Source: Peduovirus P24C9
DNA length: 32,150 bases
Sequence record: NC_049388.1
Reading direction: 5' to 3' (one strand)
Shown: piece by piece, positions 3,150 through 32,150 of the stretch
How positions within the stretch are numbered: position 1 is the stretch's first letter
Layout of the letters: the number at the start of each line of letters is the position of its first letter
Notes under the pieces: generated by a model
Database searches by the model: none
Told to the model about the DNA's origin: nothing
What the model saw: only the letters and a program-made list of their open reading frames with translations
Program-made: the position numbers and the translations under genes

Positions 3150-4004
3150 ATGGCAAAAAAAGTCTCAAAATTCTTTCGTATCGGCGTTGAGGGTGACACC
3201 TGTGACGGGCGTGTCATCAGTGCGCAGGATATTCAGGAAATGGCCGAAACCTTTGACCCGCGTGTCTATGGTTGCCGCATTAACCTGGAACATCTGCGCG
3301 GCATCCTGCCTGACGGTATTTTTAAGCGTTATGGCGATGTGGTCGAACTGAAGGCCGAAAAGATTGACGATGATTCGGCGCTGAAAGGCAAATGGGCGCT
3401 GTTTGCGAAAATCACCCCGACCGATGACCTTATCGCGATGAACAAGGCCGCGCAGAAGGTCTATACCTCAATGGAAATTCAGCCGAACTTTGCCAATACC
3501 GGCAAATGTTATCTGGTGGGTCTGGCCGTCACCGATGACCCGGCAAGCCTCGGCACGGAATACCTGGAATTCTGCCGCACGGCAAAACACAACCCTCTGA
3601 ACCGCTTCAAATTAAGCCCTGAAAACCTGATTTCAGTGGCAACGCCTGTTGAGCTGGAATTTGAAGACCTGCCTGAAACCGTGTTCACAGCCCTGACCGA
3701 AAAGGTGAAATCCATTTTTGGCCGCAAACAGGCCAGCGATGACGCCCGTCTGAATGACGTGCATGAAGCGGTGACCGCTGTCGCTGAGCATGTGCAGGAA
3801 AAACTGAGCGCCACTGAGCAGCGCCTTGCTGAGATGGAAACCGCCTTTTCCGCACTTAAGCAGGATGTGACTGACAGGGCGGATGAAACCAGCCAGGCAT
3901 TCACCCGCCTGAAAAACAGCCTCGACCACACCGAAAGTCTGACCCAGCAGCGCCGCAGCAAGGCCACCGGCGGTGGCGGTGATGCCCTGATGACGAACTG
4001 CTGA
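3150..4004 (+). CDS. O: Capsid scaffolding protein
   Basis: Start placed at internal ATG 3150 (MAKKVSKFFRIG...), giving 284 aa as in P2 gpO; the ORF track extends upstream to 3084. Confidence 0.85.
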   Translation: MAKKVSKFFRIGVEGDTCDGRVISAQDIQEMAETFDPRVYGCRINLEHLRGILPDGIFKRYGDVVELKAEKIDDDSALKGKWALFAKITPTDDLIAMNKAAQKVYTSMEIQPNFANTGKCYLVGLAVTDDPASLGTEYLEFCRTAKHNPLNRFKLSPENLISVATPVELEFEDLPETVFTALTEKVKSIFGRKQASDDARLNDVHEAVTAVAEHVQEKLSATEQRLAEMETAFSALKQDVTDRADETSQAFTRLKNSLDHTESLTQQRRSKATGGGGDALMTNC

Positions 4005-4062
4005 CCGTCGTCAGTCAGTCCGGGAAAACCTTCACGATTAACCCTTAATTTCAGGAAAAACT

Positions 4063-5136
4063 ATGCGCCAGGAAACCCGCTTTAAATTTAATGCCTACCT
4101 GTCCCGTGTTGCCGAACTGAACGGCATCGACGCCGGTGATGTGTCGAAAAAATTCACCGTTGAACCGTCGGTCACCCAGACCCTGATGAACACCATGCAG
4201 GAGTCCTCTGACTTTCTGACCCGCATCAATATTGTGCCGGTCAGCGAAATGAAAGGGGAAAAAATTGGCATCGGTGTCACCGGCTCCATCGCCAGCACCA
4301 CCGACACCGCCGGTGGCACCGAGCGTCAGCCGAAGGACTTCTCGAAGCTGGCGTCAAACAAGTACGAATGCGACCAGATTAACTTCGATTTTTATATCCG
4401 CTACAAAACGCTGGACCTGTGGGCGCGTTATCAGGATTTCCAGCTCCGTGTCCGTAACGCCATTATCAAACGCCAGTCCCTTGATTTAATCATGGTCGGT
4501 TTTAACGGCGTGAGGCGTGCCGAAACCTCTGACCGCAACAGTAATCCGATGCTGCAGGATGTGGCGGTCGGCTGGCTGCAGAAATACCGCAATGAAGCCC
4601 CGGCGCGCGTGATGAGCAAGGTCACTGACGAGGAAGGGCACACCACCTCTGAGGTTATCCGCGTGGGTAAGGGCGGTGATTATGCCAGCCTTGACGCACT
4701 GGTGATGGATGCGACCAACAACCTGATTGAGCCGTGGTATCAGGAAGACCCTGACCTTGTGGTGATTGTGGGACGTCAGCTACTGGCGGACAAGTATTTT
4801 CCCATCGTCAACAAGGAGCAGGACAACAGCGAAATGCTGGCCGCTGACGTCATCATCAGCCAGAAACGCATCGGTAACCTGCCGGCGGTACGCGTCCCGT
4901 ACTTCCCGGCGGATGCGATGCTCATCACAAAGCTGGAAAACCTGTCCATCTACTACATGGATGACAGCCATCGCCGCGTGATTGAGGAAAACCCGAAACT
5001 CGACCGCGTGGAGAACTACGAGTCAATGAACATTGATTACGTGGTGGAAGACTACGCCGCCGGTTGTCTGGTGGAAAAAATTAAGGTCGGTGATTTCTCC
5101 ACACTGGCTAAAGCGACCGCAGAGCCGGGAGCGTAA
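4063..5136 (+). CDS. N: Major capsid protein
   Basis: 357 aa ORF following O; length and position match P2 gpN. Confidence 0.9.
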   Translation: MRQETRFKFNAYLSRVAELNGIDAGDVSKKFTVEPSVTQTLMNTMQESSDFLTRINIVPVSEMKGEKIGIGVTGSIASTTDTAGGTERQPKDFSKLASNKYECDQINFDFYIRYKTLDLWARYQDFQLRVRNAIIKRQSLDLIMVGFNGVRRAETSDRNSNPMLQDVAVGWLQKYRNEAPARVMSKVTDEEGHTTSEVIRVGKGGDYASLDALVMDATNNLIEPWYQEDPDLVVIVGRQLLADKYFPIVNKEQDNSEMLAADVIISQKRIGNLPAVRVPYFPADAMLITKLENLSIYYMDDSHRRVIEENPKLDRVENYESMNIDYVVEDYAAGCLVEKIKVGDFSTLAKATAEPGA

Positions 5137-15281: not shown

Positions 15282-15920
15282 ATGAAGATGAAAAACATGT
15301 CTGAAGTGTTGACCCAAGAAAAGCTTATTTTTGTTGCCCAGAGACTAAAGGCCCTCGCGCAGTCAGGCCTGACCTATTCAAAAGACGTCTTTGACAAGGA
15401 ACGCTATGAAGCCTTGCGTGAAATTGCCGCTGGACTGCTGAGTTCGCAGTTTGATATTAGCCGCAATGATTTGTTTCATGTATCGGAAACGGGTTACGCG
15501 ACGCCCAAAACAGATGTGCGTGCGTTTATCCTGCGCAATAATCGTATTCTGATGGTGAAAGAGGCTGCAGATGGATTATGGAGTCTTCCTGGCGGATGGG
15601 CAGATGTTGGAGATACACCTTCTGAAGCTGTGCGTCGAGAGGTCGAAGAAGAAACCGGATTAAAAGTCAGAGTGACTAAACTATTGGGAGTTTGGGATCG
15701 TAATCTTCACGGCCATCCGCCTTTACCCTGGCATGTTTACAAGCTGATTTTTCTCTGTGAAGAAGTAGGTGGCAGCCTGTCAATCAGCCATGAGTCACTC
15801 GATGCTGATTTTTTTGATGTCAACGACCTGCCTGAATTGTCGCTTTCAAGAATTGTGCCTGAGCAGATTGCTGTCAGCCTGAGAGTAGCGAAAGGTGATG
15901 AAAAAACATGGTTTGATTAA
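15282..15920 (+). CDS. Nudix-family hydrolase with an N-terminal extension (accessory gene)
   Basis: Nudix box GWADVG-D-TPSEAVR-REVEEETGL fits GX5EX7REUXEEXGU with Asp for the first Glu; ~90 aa N-terminal domain; AT-richer than flanks; inserted between G and FI. Confidence 0.8.
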   Translation: MKMKNMSEVLTQEKLIFVAQRLKALAQSGLTYSKDVFDKERYEALREIAAGLLSSQFDISRNDLFHVSETGYATPKTDVRAFILRNNRILMVKEAADGLWSLPGGWADVGDTPSEAVRREVEEETGLKVRVTKLLGVWDRNLHGHPPLPWHVYKLIFLCEEVGGSLSISHESLDADFFDVNDLPELSLSRIVPEQIAVSLRVAKGDEKTWFD

Positions 15921-15943
15921 CTTTCTTCTGCAACCATTAAGGA

Positions 15944-16588
15944 ATGGCAATGATATTCAACGCTAAGGGTTTTTTATTCGATATGGACGGTACGCTGGTT
16001 GATTCAACAGCCGTAGTGGAAAGCGTCTGGAGAGATTTTTGTGCAGAATACGGTCTTGATACTCAGGCTGTGATTGCTTACGCACACGGGCGGCAAACGA
16101 TTGATACACTGACGCATTTTATTGGTGCAGGTGAGAAAACCAATAAAATCGCGGCCTCACTCGAAGAGGTTGAAATCAACACGACAGAAGGCGTTACTGA
16201 AGTAAAAGGGGCCGCTGCACTCTTATCAAAACTGCCACCGGATAGCTGGGCACTTGTCACTTCGGCAGGCAGAATGCTTGCCGAAAACAGGATGAAAGCG
16301 GCTAATCTCCCCTTACCCATAGTAATGGTGTGTGCAGAAGATGTAATGACGGGAAAACCAAGTCCCGAGGGTTACATCAAAGCAGCTTTGGCTTTGGGCC
16401 TTGAGCCTGGTGAATGCGTGGTATTTGAGGATGCATCTGCGGGTATAAAAGCAGGGCTGGCAAGTGGAGCTTCGGTAATAGCTGTTCAGCCTGACGCTCC
16501 GGGATCATCTGAAGCCCATGCCGTCAGCGAACTGTCTGACATTATGGTCAAGATTTCCGGAGAACGTTTCAATATCATCTGTGGTTAA
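15944..16588 (+). CDS. HAD-superfamily phosphatase, YfbT-like sugar-phosphatase subfamily (accessory gene)
   Basis: HAD motif I FLFDMDGTLVDS (DxDGT), conserved Lys in GKPSPEGY, motif IV-like FEDASAGIKAG; overall resemblance to E. coli YfbT as I recall it; RBS aggaatgg precedes the ATG. Confidence 0.8.
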   Translation: MAMIFNAKGFLFDMDGTLVDSTAVVESVWRDFCAEYGLDTQAVIAYAHGRQTIDTLTHFIGAGEKTNKIAASLEEVEINTTEGVTEVKGAAALLSKLPPDSWALVTSAGRMLAENRMKAANLPLPIVMVCAEDVMTGKPSPEGYIKAALALGLEPGECVVFEDASAGIKAGLASGASVIAVQPDAPGSSEAHAVSELSDIMVKISGERFNIICG

Positions 16589-24688: not shown

Positions 24689-24803
24689 CAGAAAACCCTC
24701 CGAGTGGTGTGTTTTTTTGCGACTACTAATCGCTTTTTTCGTGGTGGCTGAAATTTAGCCACCAATAGTAGGCACTTGTGATGAATATATTCACGATGAA
24801 TTG

Positions 24804-25103
24804 TTAACCAGTCTTTTGACCGGAGTGGGGCGACGTTGTTTCGTTTTGCCCAAAGTGTGCGAGAGCGGGCGCAATTTGCCCGGACTCAGGAGCGATCTGA
24901 TTGGTCATGAACCATAAAGTGTATTTGGTGAATTGTGGGGTCTGCAGGATGTTCATCATGACATCTGTTGGAGGTGTTGAACGACCACTTTCATAGTAAC
25001 TCAGCGTGCCATACGGAACCCCTGTTAAATCAGCAAGTTGTTGTCTGCTCAAATACTCTGATTTTCGCATTAAGACTATCTTCTCGCTTATCGTGTTTGA
25101 CAT
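24804..25103 (-). CDS. C: Immunity repressor C
   Basis: 99 aa with a helix-turn-helix segment (QQLADLTGVPYGTLSYYESG); divergent from cox; matches P2 C length. Confidence 0.85.
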   Translation of the reverse strand: MSNTISEKIVLMRKSEYLSRQQLADLTGVPYGTLSYYESGRSTPPTDVMMNILQTPQFTKYTLWFMTNQIAPESGQIAPALAHFGQNETTSPHSGQKTG

Positions 25104-25217
25104 GGTGTTTAGATCTCAATAGTATTTAGTTTAGATGTAGATTGTTTAGTGCTTGGATGTGGGCACTAAAAGGCATTATAAGACATTAAACGCAATTCAT
25201 GAGGGCTAGAGGACGAC
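25104..25217. promoter_or_regulatory. C/cox divergent promoter-operator region
   Basis: 114 bp AT-rich gap between divergent C and cox starts, with clustered direct repeats TTTAGAT/TTTAGTT/GTAGATT/TTTAGTG at ~25108-25151. Confidence 0.6.
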
Positions 25218-25493
25218 ATGAGCAAGCAAGTAACACTCATGACTGATGCGATTCCTTATCAGGAGTTCGCAAAACTAATAGGAAAATCGACAGGAGCGGT
25301 TCGTCGGATGATCGATAAAGGAAAGCTGCCTGTAATTGATATGACCGATCCACAATCAGCTTCAGGTCGTGCAGGTGAATATTGGGTATACCTTCCGGCA
25401 TGGAATAACGGACTAAAACTGGCTTATGAAAGCCGACCTAAAGAGATTCGTGACGGCTGGTTGATGTGGTTAGGTCTCGGTGAACCACGTTAA
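25218..25493 (+). CDS. cox: Cox excisionase / transcriptional switch protein
   Basis: 91 aa, first gene of the early rightward operon, divergent from C; matches P2 Cox length. Confidence 0.85.
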   Translation: MSKQVTLMTDAIPYQEFAKLIGKSTGAVRRMIDKGKLPVIDMTDPQSASGRAGEYWVYLPAWNNGLKLAYESRPKEIRDGWLMWLGLGEPR

Positions 25494-27257: not shown

Positions 27258-29502
27258 AGCCTCCGGGCGTTTTGTCCCTCCGTCAGCATTTGCCGCAGGC
27301 ACCGGTAAGACGTTTACCGGTGCTTATGCATGGAACGCGCCACGCGAGGCCGTCGGGCGCGAAAGACCCCTTACACGTGACGAGATGCGTCAGGTGCAAG
27401 GTGTTTTATCCACGATTAACCGCCTGCCTTACTTTTTGCGCTCGCTGTTTACTTCACGCTATGACTACATCCGGCGCAATAAAAGCCCGGTGCACGGGTT
27501 TTATTTCCTCACATCCACTTTTCAGCGTCGTTTATGGCCGCGCATTGAGCGTGTGAATCAGCGCCATGAAATGAACACCGACGCGTCGTTGCTGTTTCTG
27601 GCAGAGCGTGATCACTATGCGCGCCTGCCGGGAATGAATGACAAGGAGCTGAAAAAGTTTGCCGCCCGTATCTCATCGCAGCTTTTCATGATGTATGAGG
27701 AACTCAGCGATGCCTGGGTGGATGCGCATGGCGAAAAAGAATCACTGTTTACGGATGAGGCTCAGGATCACCTGTATGGTCATGTTGCTGGCGCTGCACG
27801 AGCTTTCAATATTTCCCCTCTCTACTGGAAAAAATACCGTAAAAGACAGATGACCACGAGGCAGGCATATTCTGCCATTGCCCGTCTGTTTAACGATGAG
27901 TGGTGGACTCATCAGCTTAAAGGCCAGCGTATGCGCTGGCATGAAGCGTTACTGATAGCTGTCGGGGAGGTCAATAAAGACCGTTCTCCTTATGCCAGTA
28001 AACACGCCATTCGTGATGTGCGTGCGCGCCGCCAGGCAAATCTGGAATTTCTTAAATCGTGTGACCTTGAAAACAGGGAAACCGGCGAGCGCATCGACCT
28101 TATCAGTAAGGTGATGGGCAGTATTTCTAATCCTGAAATTCGCCGGATGGAGCTGATGAACACCATTGCCGGTATTGAGCGTTACGCCGCTGCAGAGGGT
28201 GATGTGGGGATGTTTATCACGCTGACCGCGCCGTCAAAGTATCACCCGACACGTCAGGTAGGAAAAGGCGAAAGTAAAACCGTGCAGCTTAATCACGGCT
28301 GGAACGATGAGGCATTTAATCCAAAGGATGCGCAGCGTTATCTCTGCCGTATCTGGAGCCTGATGCGCACGGCATTCAAGGATAATGATTTACAGGTCTA
28401 CGGTTTGCGTGTCGTCGAGCCACACCACGACGGAACGCCGCACTGGCATATGATGCTTTTTTGTAATTCACGCCAGCGTAACCAGATTATCGAAATCATG
28501 CGTCGCTATGCGCTCAAAGAGGATGGCGACGAAAGAGGAGCCGCGCGAAACCGTTTTCAGGCAAAACACCTTAACCGGGGCGGTGCTGCGGGATATATCG
28601 CGAAATACATTTCAAAAAACATCGACGGCTATGCACTGGATGGTCAGCTCGATAACGACACCGGCAGGCCGCTGAAAGACACTGCAGCGGCTGTTACCGC
28701 ATGGGCGTCAACGTGGCGCATCCCGCAATTTAAAACGGTTGGCCTGCCGACAATGGGGGCTTACCGTGAACTACGCAAATTGCCGCGCGGCGTCAGCATT
28801 GCTGATGAGTTTGACGAGCGCGTCGAGGCTGCACGCGCCGCCGCAGACAGTGGTGATTTTGCGTTGTATATCAGCGCGCAGGGTGGGGCAAATGTCCCGC
28901 GCGATTGTCAGACTGTCAGAGTCGCCCGTAGCCCGTCGGATGAAGTTAACGAGTACGAGGAAGAAGTCGAGAGAGTGGTCGGCATTTACGCGCCGCATCT
29001 CGGCGCGCGTCATATTCATATCACCAGAACGACGGACTGGCGCATTGTGCCGAAAGTTCCGGTCGTTGAGCCTTTGACTTTAAAAAGCGGCATCGCCGCG
29101 CCTCGGAGTCCTGTCAATAACTGTGGAAAGCTCACCAGTGGTGATACTTCGTTACCGGCTCCCACACCTTCTGAACACGCCGCAGCAGTGCTTAATCTGG
29201 TTGATGACGGTGTTATCGAATGGAATGACCCGGAGGTCGTGAGGGTGCTCAGGGGCGCATTAAAACACGGCCTGAGAACACCAAATCGTCAGCAAAGAAA
29301 CGGAAGCCCGTTAAAACCACATGAAATTGCACCATCGGCCAGGCTGACCCGGCCGGAACGATTGCAAATTACCCGTATCCGCGTTGACCTTGCTCAGAAC
29401 GGTATCAGGCCTCAGCGATGGGAGCTTGAGGCGCTGGCGCGTGGGGCGATGGTGATTTATGATAATAAAAAATTCAAATATCCAGTGATTGATGAGTGGT
29501 AA
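27247..29502 (+). CDS. A: Replication initiation protein A (HUH rolling-circle endonuclease)
   Basis: Start placed at ATG 27247 (MAVKASGRF...); ORF track begins at 27205. Contains an HUH-like motif (PHWHMMLF) and a Tyr motif (GYIAKYISKN); P2 gpA-like size. Confidence 0.85.
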   Translation: MAVKASGRFVPPSAFAAGTGKTFTGAYAWNAPREAVGRERPLTRDEMRQVQGVLSTINRLPYFLRSLFTSRYDYIRRNKSPVHGFYFLTSTFQRRLWPRIERVNQRHEMNTDASLLFLAERDHYARLPGMNDKELKKFAARISSQLFMMYEELSDAWVDAHGEKESLFTDEAQDHLYGHVAGAARAFNISPLYWKKYRKRQMTTRQAYSAIARLFNDEWWTHQLKGQRMRWHEALLIAVGEVNKDRSPYASKHAIRDVRARRQANLEFLKSCDLENRETGERIDLISKVMGSISNPEIRRMELMNTIAGIERYAAAEGDVGMFITLTAPSKYHPTRQVGKGESKTVQLNHGWNDEAFNPKDAQRYLCRIWSLMRTAFKDNDLQVYGLRVVEPHHDGTPHWHMMLFCNSRQRNQIIEIMRRYALKEDGDERGAARNRFQAKHLNRGGAAGYIAKYISKNIDGYALDGQLDNDTGRPLKDTAAAVTAWASTWRIPQFKTVGLPTMGAYRELRKLPRGVSIADEFDERVEAARAAADSGDFALYISAQGGANVPRDCQTVRVARSPSDEVNEYEEEVERVVGIYAPHLGARHIHITRTTDWRIVPKVPVVEPLTLKSGIAAPRSPVNNCGKLTSGDTSLPAPTPSEHAAAVLNLVDDGVIEWNDPEVVRVLRGALKHGLRTPNRQQRNGSPLKPHEIAPSARLTRPERLQITRIRVDLAQNGIRPQRWELEALARGAMVIYDNKKFKYPVIDEW

Positions 29503-29631
29503 GGCTATTAAATTACGAATAAATACAGGTCTTATTGATGGATTGGGTAATAGTAAACTTTAAAAAATAATAATTGTAATGTTTTAAATTATAGTTAAAT
29601 TTCGCTTAATGACATTATCTTCTTAATATTT

Positions 29632-29661
29632 AAAGTGCCTCCCATTATTAGGGGGCACTTT
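29632..29661. terminator. Putative bidirectional terminator between convergent A and accessory operon
   Basis: Imperfect hairpin aaagtgcctccc-attatta-gggggcacttt in a very AT-rich gap, with A/T runs on both sides. Confidence 0.5.
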
Positions 29662-29677
29662 AAATTATGGGATTAAT

Positions 29678-30961
29678 TTATTGTGGCCAGTCCCAGTTAT
29701 CATATTGTTGAATTTTTTCTGATAACACTTGAGGTGCACTACCGTGAGTTACATTTTCAGCATAACCAATCGTACCGACATAGTTAATGTCATCAACATC
29801 AAGTGTATTGGCCTCCCATGGCCGTATCTTGCGAGTTGGTTCACAGATAGAAACGTCACGATTGATGGTTTTTAACCACGATATATTTATTACATTTGCG
29901 CCTGCAGCTTTTAGATACATTCTGGCTGTTTCATGAGCATTTCCTTCAGTGCAAAAATCATCAATAACTAATATTTTCTTACCTTTCAATTTAGGAGGGT
30001 TGGTATATCTTTCGCCGGTGATGAGGTTTTTAATAGGGGCAGGATTTAAATTAACGGTGTTTATTTGAGATGTGATGTTTACTTCTTGCTTAGCTATCCG
30101 AGCTTGCTGTGATTTAATAGCTGTTGTATGTCGTAAGAATAGATCTTTTAGATACTTTCCTTTGAATGAGACTGCTAAACCTTTTAGGTCATGCTCCATA
30201 ATGTTTGCTAGTTTATAAGGATCTTCAGCGTTATGTCCAACGTAGGTGGTTATAAAACTTGCTCCTTCACTTAAGCCAGAGAAATAAATGCTAGCACCAA
30301 GATATCTTATCCAAAAATCGGGGCTTCCAACCGATAGCTTTGCGAGGTCTCTTGCATTGGCTGAATACATTGTAAATTCAGGGACATATGTGCTAAATGG
30401 TGCTAAGGCGTAGTAGTGAACATCTTCATTAAAATGCCCTTGCCATCCCCACAACTGCTCTCTTAAGCAAAAGACATCAATAAATCTAGCGATTTCTTTG
30501 GGTTCTGAAAATTGAAAACCGTACTCAGTAACCGGTTCATACCAGGTCGCATTAATAAATAGGGTATTCCCGTTGGTAGCTGCTTGTAAGTCTTCCTGAG
30601 AACGCCCTACATAGATCATTTCGTTTCGTTTTAATTCTAACGCAGCCATGATGAAATCTATGGCCTTCCCTGTTTGTTTTGCTGGTATGTTGTTGTCGAG
30701 TTCACGGCAAAAGTGAATTGATTCTGGGAATTTCCTTTTTAGGTATTCGTCTAGTGTTACGATCCCGTCATGTGTTCTCACGTTTCTATTTTTATTTGTC
30801 AAGAAGATAACTTTAATCCCTTTTGATGACAAAAACGCAAACAACTTACGTAATTCAGAGTCGATTCTAGATTTTAGTTCCTGAGGTTGAGTGTTAGATG
30901 TTAATGGTAATACAACATCTGCGATTGAAAATATAACTGCCTTTAAATACATATTATTCAT
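29678..30961 (-). CDS. Phosphoribosyltransferase-domain protein, second gene of the accessory operon
   Basis: 427 aa; C-terminal PRTase-like motif KKILVIDDFCTEGNAHET; N-terminal half has degenerate HAD-like motifs (VIFSIADVV, IYVGRSQEDLQAATNGN); start overlaps the upstream gene by 8 nt; AT-rich. Confidence 0.7.
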   Translation of the reverse strand: MNNMYLKAVIFSIADVVLPLTSNTQPQELKSRIDSELRKLFAFLSSKGIKVIFLTNKNRNVRTHDGIVTLDEYLKRKFPESIHFCRELDNNIPAKQTGKAIDFIMAALELKRNEMIYVGRSQEDLQAATNGNTLFINATWYEPVTEYGFQFSEPKEIARFIDVFCLREQLWGWQGHFNEDVHYYALAPFSTYVPEFTMYSANARDLAKLSVGSPDFWIRYLGASIYFSGLSEGASFITTYVGHNAEDPYKLANIMEHDLKGLAVSFKGKYLKDLFLRHTTAIKSQQARIAKQEVNITSQINTVNLNPAPIKNLITGERYTNPPKLKGKKILVIDDFCTEGNAHETARMYLKAAGANVINISWLKTINRDVSICEPTRKIRPWEANTLDVDDINYVGTIGYAENVTHGSAPQVLSEKIQQYDNWDWPQ

Positions 30962-32003
30962 CTCCCAGAAGAGAAAGTTGCTGTGTTTTTACACCGGATG
31001 CTGATTTAATTAAGCTTTGCACGTCTTTAAAATCGGATAGTGGAATATTCATTATCGTAGCTGAGTACTCTGACAAGGCATGTTTAATCTCTTCTTGAGG
31101 TGTAGTTCCCCTAAGTAAAGGACAAAGTATCGCTCTTTTTAATTGAGCAGCATATCTCACAGTATGAGATGTCCCACTTTTTAGGCCCCATTCAACTGGG
31201 ATCAATACATCACTTAAAGCTGCTTGAATTCTATTTCTACGAACAAAGTTTTCCTGTGATGGTTTTTGGTTTGGTAAATACTCAGTAAGAATCAGTCCGC
31301 CATTATTTACAATATGGCCTCTCATCTCGCCACTATTTTTGGGATAATTTGAGTTTACGCCAGTACCTAACACAGCAATTGTCGGTATTTTAAATAACAG
31401 GGATGCTTCATGTGCAGATTGATCTATACCATATGCTAAACCGCTTACAGTTGAATAATCCGAATCTATAAATTGCGAGATTACTGCTTGAGTTAAATAA
31501 ATTCCAAGTGCGGTTGGGTTTCTGGTGCCGACAACTCCAACACACTTTTTATCTAGCAAGGATACATTGCCTTGAGCAAACAACCAGAAAGGCGGCTCAG
31601 ACAGGTCATTCAACTTGTCTGGATAGCTCGGAGAACCATGGTGGATGATTTTGTAACCACTATTATGATAATGTGTGAGTAATATTTTAGCCGTAGAAAT
31701 CATGCTGTCCCGAAAAACAGACCAATTGCCTTCATTCAAATAATAAGGTTGGCGATGAAGTTTTACTCCAAGTAGATACTCAAAGTTGGCTAATGTTTGG
31801 CTGGTAACAATGTCTCTAAATCTGATTCCCTTTTGAGCAACTTTATATAGAGTCCAATAACTAACGCCATGTATTTCTGATAGTGCCAACAAAGCGGCAC
31901 TTTCTGTGTTCCATCGAGCTGTTTCAATATCCGTCATAATGTTCGCCAAAATGGAAGATTTTTTATCGCTTTTATCATAGGTTTGTATAAAAGTGTAGCA
32001 CAT
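30954..32003 (-). CDS. DprA/Smf-like (SLOG-type Rossmann fold) protein, first gene of the accessory operon
   Basis: 349 aa; DprA-family motifs VGVVGTRNPTALG, SGLAYGIDQSAHEASL, TIAVLGTGVNSNYPKN, LTEY and FVRRNRIQAALSD...SGTSHTVRYAAQLKRAI; alternative start at MTDIETARW (31937); AT-rich. Confidence 0.75.
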   Translation of the reverse strand: MCYTFIQTYDKSDKKSSILANIMTDIETARWNTESAALLALSEIHGVSYWTLYKVAQKGIRFRDIVTSQTLANFEYLLGVKLHRQPYYLNEGNWSVFRDSMISTAKILLTHYHNSGYKIIHHGSPSYPDKLNDLSEPPFWLFAQGNVSLLDKKCVGVVGTRNPTALGIYLTQAVISQFIDSDYSTVSGLAYGIDQSAHEASLLFKIPTIAVLGTGVNSNYPKNSGEMRGHIVNNGGLILTEYLPNQKPSQENFVRRNRIQAALSDVLIPVEWGLKSGTSHTVRYAAQLKRAILCPLLRGTTPQEEIKHALSEYSATIMNIPLSDFKDVQSLIKSASGVKTQQLSLLGDE

Positions 32004-32110
32004 TAAACCAAGACTTTAGAGGGCATGTTCTTGCATCAAACTGCATGTAAAAAAACAAAAAATTAATGCACCTTAGGTCTTATCCAGTCAATCTCGAGTG
32101 TTCACATGCA
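32004..32110 (-). promoter_or_regulatory. Putative promoter region for the accessory operon
   Basis: AT-rich non-coding sequence just upstream of the DprA-like ORF on the minus strand; no -35/-10 pair confidently assigned. Confidence 0.3.
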
Positions 32111-32150
32111 TCTGCATTAAAACCGCCCCACGAAGCGGGCGGGCGAGGCG

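Follow-up and report, generated by a model that had tools for sequence, protein, structure and literature searches.

The stretch of DNA analysed here, referred to as the window, is 32,150 nucleotides long and belongs to a P2-like phage that shows 1 mismatch over 32131 nt with Escherichia phage 10W. The genes of interest are situated between gene A, whose stop codon lies at 29502, and cos. The homology that Megablast finds with 80+ other P2-like phages ends at 29499-29500, at the end of gene A, and in an alignment with the right end of P2 it picks up again at about 32113, where the terminator and cos are found. Neither comparison detected homology between the P2 old/tin region and the interior of the cassette. 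The GC content is 37.6% from 29503 to 32150, as against 53.2% elsewhere in the window. The P2 alignment and the gene A and cos borders confirm that this is the exchangeable A-to-cos slot, which is occupied by tin and old in P2 and is a documented defence hotspot of P2-like phages (PMC9122126); both the slot and the AT-rich character of the locus relative to the backbone had been recognized in the original prediction. The last letters of the window are the first 9 nt of GGCGAGGCGGGGAAAGCAC, the 19-nt cohesive end of cos. The complete 19-nt cos of P2 was looked for in the window without a match, because the window is cut inside cos, as phage 10W and the prophage copies show.

Two minus-strand open reading frames, 29678..30961 (427 aa) and 30954..32003 (349 aa), are present in the slot, as predicted. 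The genes, designated shosA (upstream) and shosT (downstream), are adjacent and co-oriented, and they either overlap or abut depending on the start of shosT. The 8-nt overlap described earlier, ATGAATAA at 30954-30961, holds for the first ATG of shosT, which is the RefSeq start, but disappears if translation begins at the second ATG (30952). The second ATG has a GGGAGA Shine-Dalgarno sequence 9 nt ahead of it and is the Met from which the 424-residue ShosT is numbered in PMC11961720 and PMC12961424. The mechanical reading frame of shosA reaches 32003, but its first 22 codons are probably untranslated: Met23 (31937) is the start in RefSeq, in the PADLOC model and in the two crystal constructs. 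GenBank OM475433.1 and RefSeq still carry the names 'Smf/DprA' and 'hypothetical protein' for the two products. The features of the locus are collected in Table 1, in which the domain coordinates of ShosA are computed from the start at 31937.

Table 1. Features of the shosA-shosT locus and its borders (positions in the window)
Feature	Position	Strand	Basis and remarks
Exchangeable cargo cassette, ~2.6 kb	29503..32112	.	37.6% GC; takes the place that orf91-tin-old has in P2, from gene A to cos
Hairpin between convergent gene A and shosT	29628..29665	.	RNA fold -21.8 kcal/mol, z-score -5.25, 0/200 shuffles as stable
shosT, toxin	29678..30961	-	427 aa from first ATG (RefSeq WP_001062015.1); 424 aa from ATG at 30952
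ShosT C-terminal non-canonical PRTase domain, residues 165-424 in published numbering	29681..30460	-	PRPP-bound crystals; toxic activity
PRPP-binding loop ILVIDDFCTEG, residues 330-340 of 427	29942..29974	-	Translation and weak Pfam PF00156 match
ShosT HAD-like Rossmann domain, residues 1-164 in published numbering	30461..30952	-	Pfam Hydrolase/HAD_2 below gathering, 2HI0 alignment, homologue alignment
shosA, DprA-like antitoxin, 327 aa	30954..31937	-	PADLOC, PDB identity, RefSeq WP_001389235.1, Pfam DNA_processg_A
ShosA disordered C-terminal tail, residues 314-327	30957..30998	-	Reported instability determinant
ShosA DprA-type Rossmann domain, residues 95-313	30999..31655	-	Pfam PF02481 and residue positions
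ShosA SAM-like five-helix domain, residues 1-94	31656..31937	-	Domain limits seen in crystals of the identical protein (PMC11961720, PMC12961424)
Candidate sigma-70 promoter of shosA-shosT	32062..32091	-	TTGACT, 18 nt, TGcATTAAT (extended -10); read by eye
Flanking backbone	32123..32150	-	P2-conserved terminator hairpin CCGCCCGCTTCGTGGGGCGG and TTTT, then 9 nt of cos; terminator scan and P2 alignment

The putative promoter ahead of shosA would occupy a cos-proximal position equivalent to that of the P2 old-tin promoter. A consensus promoter scan upstream of shosA flagged no operon promoter; the candidate is missed because its -10 hexamer does not have the A that the scan demands as second base. 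Since the scan returned 7 promoter-like matches against a shuffle expectation of 8.7, those matches are uninformative. E. coli strain 4114 carries an IS5-family insertion at 32050-32054, directly downstream of the candidate promoter. At the other end of the cassette, the hairpin between the convergent genes is a probable bidirectional terminator, which is absent from the terminator scan list because it has no canonical U-tract. Compared with Rfam at gathering thresholds, the window as a whole yielded no RNA family, so that nothing points to an antitoxin or regulator made of RNA.

Both proteins match the PADLOC models of the ShosTA system over the full length of the models. The toxin matches ShosT PDLC03012 with an E-value of 4e-296 (979.5 bits, model positions 1-427 of 427), and residues 23-349 of the antitoxin reading frame match positions 1-327 of 327 of ShosA PDLC02997 (E 2.2e-231). 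The two models of a distant clade, PDLC03962 and PDLC03961, also recognize ShosT (E 1.9e-53) and ShosA (E 2.4e-85), respectively. ShosT is 100% identical over its full length to the proteins in PDB entries 8ZVB, 8ZVC, 8ZVD, 9W2P and 9W2Q, and ShosA to those in 9VZO and 8ZVA; 26 of the 28 checked residues named in PMC11961720 and PMC12961424 sit at the stated positions. In a DNA copy 99.9-100% identical to the locus, RefSeq annotates WP_001389235.1 and WP_001062015.1, and this pair is an entry among the P2-hotspot loci in Table S5 of Rousset et al. 2022 (PMC9122126). The same study cloned the DprA and PRTase system of E. coli APEC O1 as pFR105 and reported protection against T7 and lambda. The ShosTA systems of E. 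coli APEC O1 and KTE181 share with the present locus proteins that are 100% identical, the gene order and the location in the P2 hotspot. They are, however, prophage copies, whereas the carrier here is a cos-delimited, phage 10W-like genome, and a few SNPs in the flanking backbone separate them from it.

These matches make it very probable that the two genes are the ShosTA anti-phage system, which a P2-like phage carries in its gpA-cos-gpQ hotspot as cargo for lysogenic conversion. They would form a shosA-then-shosT operon with its own candidate promoter near cos. The PADLOC matches, the PDB identities and the cloning experiment bear out the anti-phage module of DprA-like and PRTase proteins proposed from the raw sequence, and the earlier report of such a pair in P2-like hotspots, to which the prediction referred, is that of Rousset et al. 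The pair is thus already known: it was named, tested against phages, crystallised and dissected on identical sequences (Kimelman 2012, Rousset 2022, Millman 2022, Pu 2025, Yang 2026). ShosTA shares with the P2 old/tin genes (together with orf91) the slot, the minus strand, a (here putative) cos-proximal promoter of its own and the exclusion of other phages by lysogenic conversion. The proteins themselves are unrelated, P2 Old being an ATPase-TOPRIM nuclease and P2 Tin blocking the growth of T-even phages.

ShosA is built of a SAM-like domain, a DprA-type Rossmann domain and a disordered tail. Its N-terminal region, first taken for some 140 uncharacterised residues, consists of the 22 over-called codons and the crystallographically defined SAM-like domain. 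Pfam PF02481 (DNA_processg_A) matches residues 113-317 of the 349-aa frame with 201.8 bits (gathering threshold 29.6, E 9.8e-60), and the DprA-like motifs GTR, SGLAYGID, TIAVLGTGVNSNYP and RRNRI were correctly read from the translation. ShosA carries R139, R234 and R261, K200 and R206, and L181 and F182 at the published positions. Mutagenesis assigned the first three to ssDNA binding, the next two to the contact with RecA and the last two to the dimer interface (PMC11961720, PMC12961424); R139, R234 and R261 are equivalent to R52, R143 and R170 of H. pylori DprA (PMC12961424). The full-length protein is unstable and the 1-313 truncation stable (Pu et al. 2025, PMC11961720), and residues 316-328 were reported as disordered (Yang et al. 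2026, PMC12961424).

ShosA has a SAM-like and a Rossmann domain, forms a homodimer, and possesses the ssDNA-binding arginines and RecA binding in common with canonical DprA/Smf proteins (S. pneumoniae 3UQZ, H. pylori 4LJR, E. coli Smf). In contrast to these, it lacks a counterpart to the C-terminal end of the E. coli-type model, matching profile positions 64-272 of 374 only, and it has an extra helix, alpha-14, and an antitoxin role instead of one in transformation (PMC12961424). It misses both NCBIfam DprA equivalog cut-offs, scoring 171.2 against 191.15 for TIGR00732 and 128.6 against 495 for NF008007. A SLOG-type sensor of nucleotide signals, the other affinity suggested originally, is not what ShosA proved to be: it is a type IV antitoxin. 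The Pfam cpYpsA match has an E-value of just 0.024, under the cut-off, and the published role of an antitoxin that binds ssDNA and RecA is preferred.

The PRTase nature of ShosT is less evident from general profiles. Pfam PF00156 (Pribosyltran) reaches 22.0 bits, below the gathering threshold of 26.3 (E 1.1e-4, residues 306-360 only), and distant ShosT homologues also score at or just under this threshold. The suggested profile search bore out the DprA family, but not the PRTase family at the Pfam threshold. Because the PRTase and HAD models are both sub-threshold, they are insufficient alone for a PRTase call, which is settled by the PADLOC and PDB matches. The nucleotide-binding loop ILVIDDFCTEG is present as predicted, although the protein does not end in it; the loop covers residues 330-340 of 427. 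Its D334 and D335 (427-aa numbering) are D331 and D332 of the papers. The residues H243, R288, Q299, D334, D335, T338 and G340, in the same numbering, are invariant in 34 homologues down to 35% identity. PRPP is bound, with Mg2+, in the crystals 9W2Q and 8ZVC, and the D331A/D332A and R285E mutants are non-toxic (PMC11961720, PMC12961424). ShosT resembles type I PRTases (for example, adenine PRTase) and the PRTase effectors associated with retrons in its Rossmann core, its PPi, PRPP and flexible loops and its essential acidic DD pair. It differs from these proteins in being monomeric and in having a six-stranded sheet, a nine-residue PPi loop, a long flexible loop and no known acceptor base. 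It bound none of the common purines tested (PMC11961720), and no phosphoribosyl acceptor was found (PMC11961720, PMC12961424); PRPP depletion and a toxic product are both candidates for the basis of toxicity.

The public names 'DNA-processing protein DprA' or 'Rossmann fold nucleotide-binding protein Smf' and 'hypothetical protein', together with an NCBI entry that calls a ShosT fragment 'HAD family hydrolase', would fit a different reading, according to which a housekeeping DprA/Smf for DNA uptake and a nucleotide-salvage PRTase/HAD phosphatase are carried as metabolic morons with no part in conflict. ShosA, however, stays under both equivalog cut-offs and covers only part of the E. coli-type DprA model, and ShosT is toxic, monomeric and without affinity for the common purines tested (PMC11961720, PMC12961424). 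The published toxicity and defence assays, performed on identical sequences, refute this reading, and its probability is practically nil.

The N-terminal domain of ShosT was overlooked when the downstream protein was read, correctly in itself, as a PRTase. This domain is HAD-like; a pyrophosphatase activity independent of Mg, which would drive the PRTase reaction forward, was reported for it (PMC11961720). Pfam HAD models match it with E 3e-4 and 21.7 bits against a gathering threshold of 26.4, which is exceeded in some homologues. A PDB search with this domain alone found, besides ShosT itself, only a weak match to the HAD protein 2HI0 (E 0.23), which serves to set the register and is not evidence of homology. 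The register of motif I was taken from the hydrophobic beta-1 pattern, without structural superposition, and that of motifs II-IV from the alignment to 2HI0. At the nucleophile position of motif I (AVIF-S-I-A-D-V), 29 of the 34 homologues have Ser, five have Gly and none has Asp. As placed in this register, T55 of motif II is Thr or Ser in 25/34, K95 of motif III is Lys in 32/34 and D124 of motif IV is found in all 34, and several aromatic residues of the domain are invariant alongside it. Instead of the first acid of motif IV, the proteins have Arg, Ala, Ser or Asn. The phosphate-binding R56 is kept in 7/34 and gives way to Trp in 17/34, and the R56A mutation hardly lowers toxicity (PMC11961720).

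The published pyrophosphatase role of the domain is weakly supported, and the domain may not be a true pyrophosphatase. Because the nucleophile Asp is absent in 34/34, the first acid of motif IV is replaced and R56 is unconserved, it may rather be a HAD fold whose catalytic site has degenerated and which binds phosphate or another ligand in a regulatory capacity, or binds the acceptor. This reading of the alignment is put forward tentatively, as possible rather than probable. The missing motif I Asp in every aligned member, as judged from the sequences, is a small addition to the published picture of ShosTA.

ShosT alone is toxic when expressed, and its toxicity needs PRPP binding by the monomeric, non-canonical PRTase; expression perturbs purine metabolism and causes filamentation and genome duplications (PMC11961720, PMC12961424). 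ShosA neutralises ShosT without binding to it, and the pair is therefore classed as a type IV toxin-antitoxin system. The neutralisation depends on dimerisation of the DprA-like protein, on ssDNA binding (R139, R234) and on RecA binding (K200, R206) (PMC11961720, PMC12961424). In the published mechanism, ShosTA is an abortive-infection system of this type: ShosT, with PRPP bound, disturbs purine metabolism and so brings about DNA damage, which ShosA, a binder of ssDNA and of RecA, counteracts. Since ShosA is unstable, the host shutoff induced by a phage (T7 Gp0.7), and possibly phage ssDNA, frees the toxin. T7 Gp0.7, or transient chloramphenicol or rifampicin, makes ShosA drop while ShosT persists, and the ensuing toxicity aborts infection; ShosTA under its native promoter on a plasmid lowers T7 plating 10^6-fold (PMC11961720). 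Cultures at high MOI showed no early collapse, an atypical outcome for abortive infection (PMC11961720).

The two structural studies arrived at different triggers, Gp0.7-mediated shutoff in one (PMC11961720) and disruption of the ShosA-RecA interaction by ssDNA in the other (PMC12961424). According to the latter proposal, termed 'competitive sensing', it is mainly phage replication intermediates, rather than passive decay of ShosA, that trigger the same system: ssDNA titrates ShosA off RecA and the damage is left unrepaired. An excess of ssDNA inhibits the ShosA-RecA pull-down, K200E and R206E lose antitoxin activity (PMC12961424), the ssDNA-binding arginines of DprA are retained in ShosA, and escape mutants of T7, SECphi4 and SECphi18 map to SSB and primase-helicase genes (Stokar-Avihail 2023, as cited in PMC11961720 and PMC12961424). 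The ssDNA effect, however, is an in vitro one. Co-expression of T7 SSB with ShosTA is non-toxic but that of Gp0.7 is lethal, the ShosA protein drops during infection, and either chloramphenicol or rifampicin suffices by itself to switch the system on (PMC11961720). That ssDNA is the main trigger is conceivable, though we would not put it as high as an even chance; the two triggers are not mutually exclusive.

A more distant clade of ShosTA, recognized by PDLC03961 and PDLC03962 and with ShosT homologues 35-42% identical, has the DprA-like gene directly upstream of the HAD-like/PRTase gene, as here. It shares with the present ShosT the invariant PRPP-contact residues and the degenerate HAD motif I. 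Its ShosT homologues are about 405-420 aa long with a shorter loop past strand beta-1, have Ala, Ser or Asn for the motif IV Arg and account for Trp in place of R56 (17/34). The clade sits in P4-like satellites and chromosomal defence islands, outside the P2 slot; the gene order is retained at 38-39% identity in one P4-like satellite and in one cyanobacterial locus adjoining an Abi_2 gene. PsyrTA and RqlHI are related through their antitoxins, which are DprA homologues like ShosA (Rousset 2022, PMC9122126). The PADLOC PsyrA model matches ShosA (E 3.8e-24), but PsyrT gave no match to ShosT, and the toxin architecture of these systems is different.

An alternative view is that ShosTA is primarily an addiction module that stabilises the P2-like prophage, with phage defence as a side effect. 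It is a genuine toxin-antitoxin pair of stable toxin and unstable antitoxin, it travels on P2-like phages and on a P4-like satellite, all of them mobile, and a putative plasmid-partition system occupies the same hotspot in about a quarter of P2-like phages. Against this stand the 10^6-fold drop in T7 plating (PMC11961720) and the protection against T7 and lambda (PMC9122126), the distant homologue that lies beside an Abi_2 gene and an SNF2/PLD helicase on a cyanobacterial chromosome, and the documentation of the slot as a defence hotspot (PMC9122126). Loss of an integrated prophage is also presumably too rare an event for the main benefit to lie in post-segregational killing. A primary role in addiction is therefore improbable.

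The identification of the locus as the ShosTA anti-phage system corrects the names given in OM475433.1 and RefSeq. A genuine piece of P2-hotspot defence cargo was picked from raw sequence, which makes the locus a positive control for sequence-only reading. For ShosTA itself, the analysis raises the questions of the phosphoribosyl acceptor, of what the degenerate HAD-like domain really does and of the physiological phage trigger. If the degenerate nature of this domain is true, it would, together with the question of the PRTase acceptor, leave room for undescribed toxic chemistry.

The sequences identify the locus as the reported ShosTA system itself, not merely a relative. Both proteins match their PADLOC profiles across the full model length (ShosA, E 2.2e-231; ShosT, E 4e-296). 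In a PDB sequence search, ShosT is 100% identical end to end to 8ZVB, 8ZVC, 8ZVD, 9W2P and 9W2Q, and ShosA to 9VZO and 8ZVA. An E. coli copy of the DNA, 99.9-100% identical, is annotated as WP_001389235.1 and WP_001062015.1, and Rousset et al. 2022 (PMC9122126) include exactly this pair among the P2-hotspot loci of their Table S5. The 'DprA+Phosphoribosyltransferase' system was cloned in that study as pFR105 from E. coli APEC O1 and, according to the main text, protects against T7 and lambda (PMC9122126). The statement in the original prediction that a DprA-like/PRTase pair had been reported as anti-phage in P2-like hotspots was correct. Every defining feature of ShosTA that can be tested in sequence was found in the window, and the functional ones have been shown on the same proteins (PMC9122126, PMC11961720, PMC12961424). 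No known system is closer than ShosTA, whose sequences are identical to these, and the finding is therefore not new. The observation holds, and its interpretation as a defence module is supported, with corrections to the domain content and the toxin-antitoxin logic.

From generic profiles alone the identification would have been less clear. The expected DprA/Smf match is strong (Pfam DNA_processg_A, E 9.8e-60), and the expected PRTase match is sub-threshold in Pfam (Pribosyltran on ShosT, 22.0 bits against a gathering threshold of 26.3), as are the HAD models on ShosT (21.7 against 26.4). By NCBI criteria ShosA is not a canonical DprA: it scores 171.2 on TIGR00732 (cut-off 191.15) and 128.6 on the E. 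coli-type DprA model (cut-off 495), of which only positions 64-272 of 374 are covered. PsyrTA and RqlHI also have DprA-like antitoxins, and the PADLOC PsyrA profile matches ShosA with E 3.8e-24; the other related systems are a distant ShosTA clade, P2 old/tin, canonical DprA and the type I PRTases.

The ORF list bears out the two predicted minus-strand genes, all the motif strings quoted for them are present in the translations, and the locus is AT-rich (37.6% GC in 29503-32150 against 53.2% in the rest of the window). The 349-aa shosA ORF is over-called by 22 codons. The accepted Met is encoded at 31937 and is the start in RefSeq (327 aa), in the PADLOC model (residues 23-349 correspond to 1-327 of 327) and in both crystal constructs. 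The predicted 8-nt overlap of the two genes (ATGAATAA) exists if shosT starts at its first ATG, as in RefSeq, and is absent from the second ATG (30952), which has a GGGAGA Shine-Dalgarno sequence 9 nt upstream. Both structural papers count ShosT from the second Met (424 aa; PMC11961720, PMC12961424), as is evident because their D331/D332 are D334/D335 of the 427-aa ORF. The overlap is therefore real on paper, and the translated form may differ.

Features of the ShosTA cassette in the window
Feature	Position	Strand	Details
Strong hairpin between convergent genes A and shosT	29628-29665		-21.8 kcal/mol, z -5.25
shosT ORF	29678..30961	-	427 aa, ORF list
shosA ORF, mechanical	30954..32003	-	349 aa, ORF list
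Candidate extended -10 promoter 5' of shosA	32091-32062	-	TTGACT-18 nt-TGcATTAAT, read from the sequence

The carrier belongs to the P2-like phages (Peduovirus), and over 32131 nt the window shows a single mismatch to the reverse complement of Escherichia phage 10W (OM475433.1). The window runs from cos to cos: the 19-nt cohesive end GGCGAGGCGGGGAAAGCAC lies immediately before it, and it closes with the first 9 nt of that end; in the prophage form the portal gene Q is the next backbone gene past cos. With over 80 further P2-like phages, similarity ends at 29499-29500, the end of gene A (29502), and alignment with P2 picks up again at about 32113 with a conserved hairpin terminator followed by cos, so the cargo cassette is placed at 29503-32112. 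In P2 the same slot holds orf91-tin-old, on the same strand and with its own cos-proximal promoter; the slot is shared, but the P2 Old and Tin proteins are unrelated to ShosTA. Because a consensus promoter scan did not list it, the element upstream of shosA is put forward as a plausible promoter by inference. The cos-side terminator (32123-32142) is kept in P2 (about 4056-4075 of the P2 locus compared), the sole difference being two loop bases, CA on the window's plus strand and GT in P2. It probably stops the leftward P-Q transcript when the genome is circular or integrated, and shields the cargo promoter.

Some match to 29503-32150 was found in 94 of 5426 complete E. coli genomes, chromosomal without exception, and 30 carry at least 80% of the query; in the phage collection the cassette occurs in a single record, 10W. 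E. coli strain 4114 (NZ_CP071328.1) has an IS5-family insertion of about 1.06 kb at window position 32050-32054 (3153-4213 of that strain's locus, L007), between the candidate promoter and the shosA start, with both genes intact. This natural allele may switch off the two genes together, not just shosA. The names in public records lag behind: the 10W record (OM475433.1 129-2454, window 29678-32003) calls the shosA product 'Rossmann fold nucleotide-binding protein Smf', giving it 349 aa from an over-extended start, and the shosT product 'hypothetical protein'; RefSeq has 'DNA-processing protein DprA' and 'hypothetical protein', and neither uses the names ShosA and ShosT. The 10W record also has no CDS between cox and int (OM475433.1 6914-7444, window about 24690-25220), the place of the immunity repressor C in P2-like phages, where the RefSeq prophage copy has a helix-turn-helix protein.

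A second accessory slot, in the P2 Z/fun position between the tail-fibre assembly gene G and the sheath gene FI, holds two cargo genes of about 45-47% GC (15282-16588, plus strand). One product is a 212-aa Nudix hydrolase that includes a Nudix_N domain (Pfam NUDIX, E 7.9e-19) and has a weak PADLOC match to PDC-S07 (E 6.6e-10). The other, 214 aa long, is a canonical HAD phosphatase whose FDMDGT motif is intact; its nearest NCBIfam model is sugar phosphatase PRK11587, on which it scores below the cut-off, and PADLOC gave no match. The pair could be nucleotide-directed defence or counter-defence cargo.

With the operon on its native promoter, T7 plating is reduced by six orders of magnitude (PMC11961720). 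ShosT is toxic alone and is rescued by ShosA without binding between the two, which makes the system a type IV toxin-antitoxin (PMC11961720). When ShosT is expressed, purine metabolism is disturbed, cells form filaments and genome duplications arise; toxicity is lost in D331A/D332A, and the N-terminal-domain mutation R56A is near-neutral (PMC11961720). The PRTase ShosT is non-canonical and monomeric, with six strands in its sheet and nine residues in its PPi loop; R285E is non-toxic, and H240E and K280E are merely less toxic (PMC12961424). ShosA has a SAM-like domain at residues 1-94 followed by a DprA Rossmann domain at 95-313, binds ssDNA, which is needed for neutralisation, and co-purifies with recombination proteins (PMC11961720). 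It is a homodimer that binds RecA directly, and K200E and R206E abolish both RecA binding and antitoxin activity (PMC12961424). The system is activated by T7 Gp0.7, chloramphenicol or rifampicin, and during infection ShosA drops and ShosT stays (PMC11961720). Because excess ssDNA breaks up the ShosA-RecA interaction, phage ssDNA was proposed as an additional trigger (PMC12961424), which would agree with the SSB and primase-helicase escape mutations that Stokar-Avihail et al. 2023 reported. In the window proteins, 26 of 28 residues named in the papers stand at the stated positions. The phosphoribosyl acceptor, the reversal of damage by RecA and ShosA, and the dominant trigger are steps still inferred.

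A homologue search with ShosT returned 201 proteins in two tiers, one enterobacterial (54-100% identical) and one taxonomically broad (35-42%). When 34 of them were aligned, no variation was seen at the residues that contact PRPP, H243, R288, Q299, D334, D335, T338 and G340 (427-aa numbering). In the N-terminal HAD-like domain, motif II still has its Thr (T55), motif III its Lys (K95, conserved in 32 of 34) and motif IV its second acidic residue (D124, 34 of 34). The first acidic position of motif IV is taken by Arg, Ala, Ser or Asn, and the motif I nucleophile position, in a register predicted from the beta-1 hydrophobic pattern, is Ser in 29, Gly in five and Asp in none; motif I never fell within the Pfam HAD matches of family members. 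The published phosphate-binding R56 is kept in seven of 34. These degenerate motifs are in keeping with the Mg-independence reported for the domain and with the slight effect of R56A (PMC11961720), and suggest that, in the ShosT model as published, the 'coupled pyrophosphatase' role is the least secure element. A tentative reading, given rather less than an even chance, makes the domain a degenerate module for regulation or ligand binding, and the toxic chemistry one not yet described.

The order of a DprA-like gene followed by a HAD/PRTase gene is kept in two homologues of 38-39% identity. One lies on a cyanobacterial chromosome, with an SNF2/PLD helicase gene on one side and an Abi_2 gene on the other. 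The other, a 38%-identical pair, lies in an E. coli P4-like satellite (AP027500.1; 4010-6230 of the locus compared, L003), adjoining primase, Psu and Delta genes, so that ShosTA-type systems occupy cos-proximal hotspots of helper phage and satellite alike.
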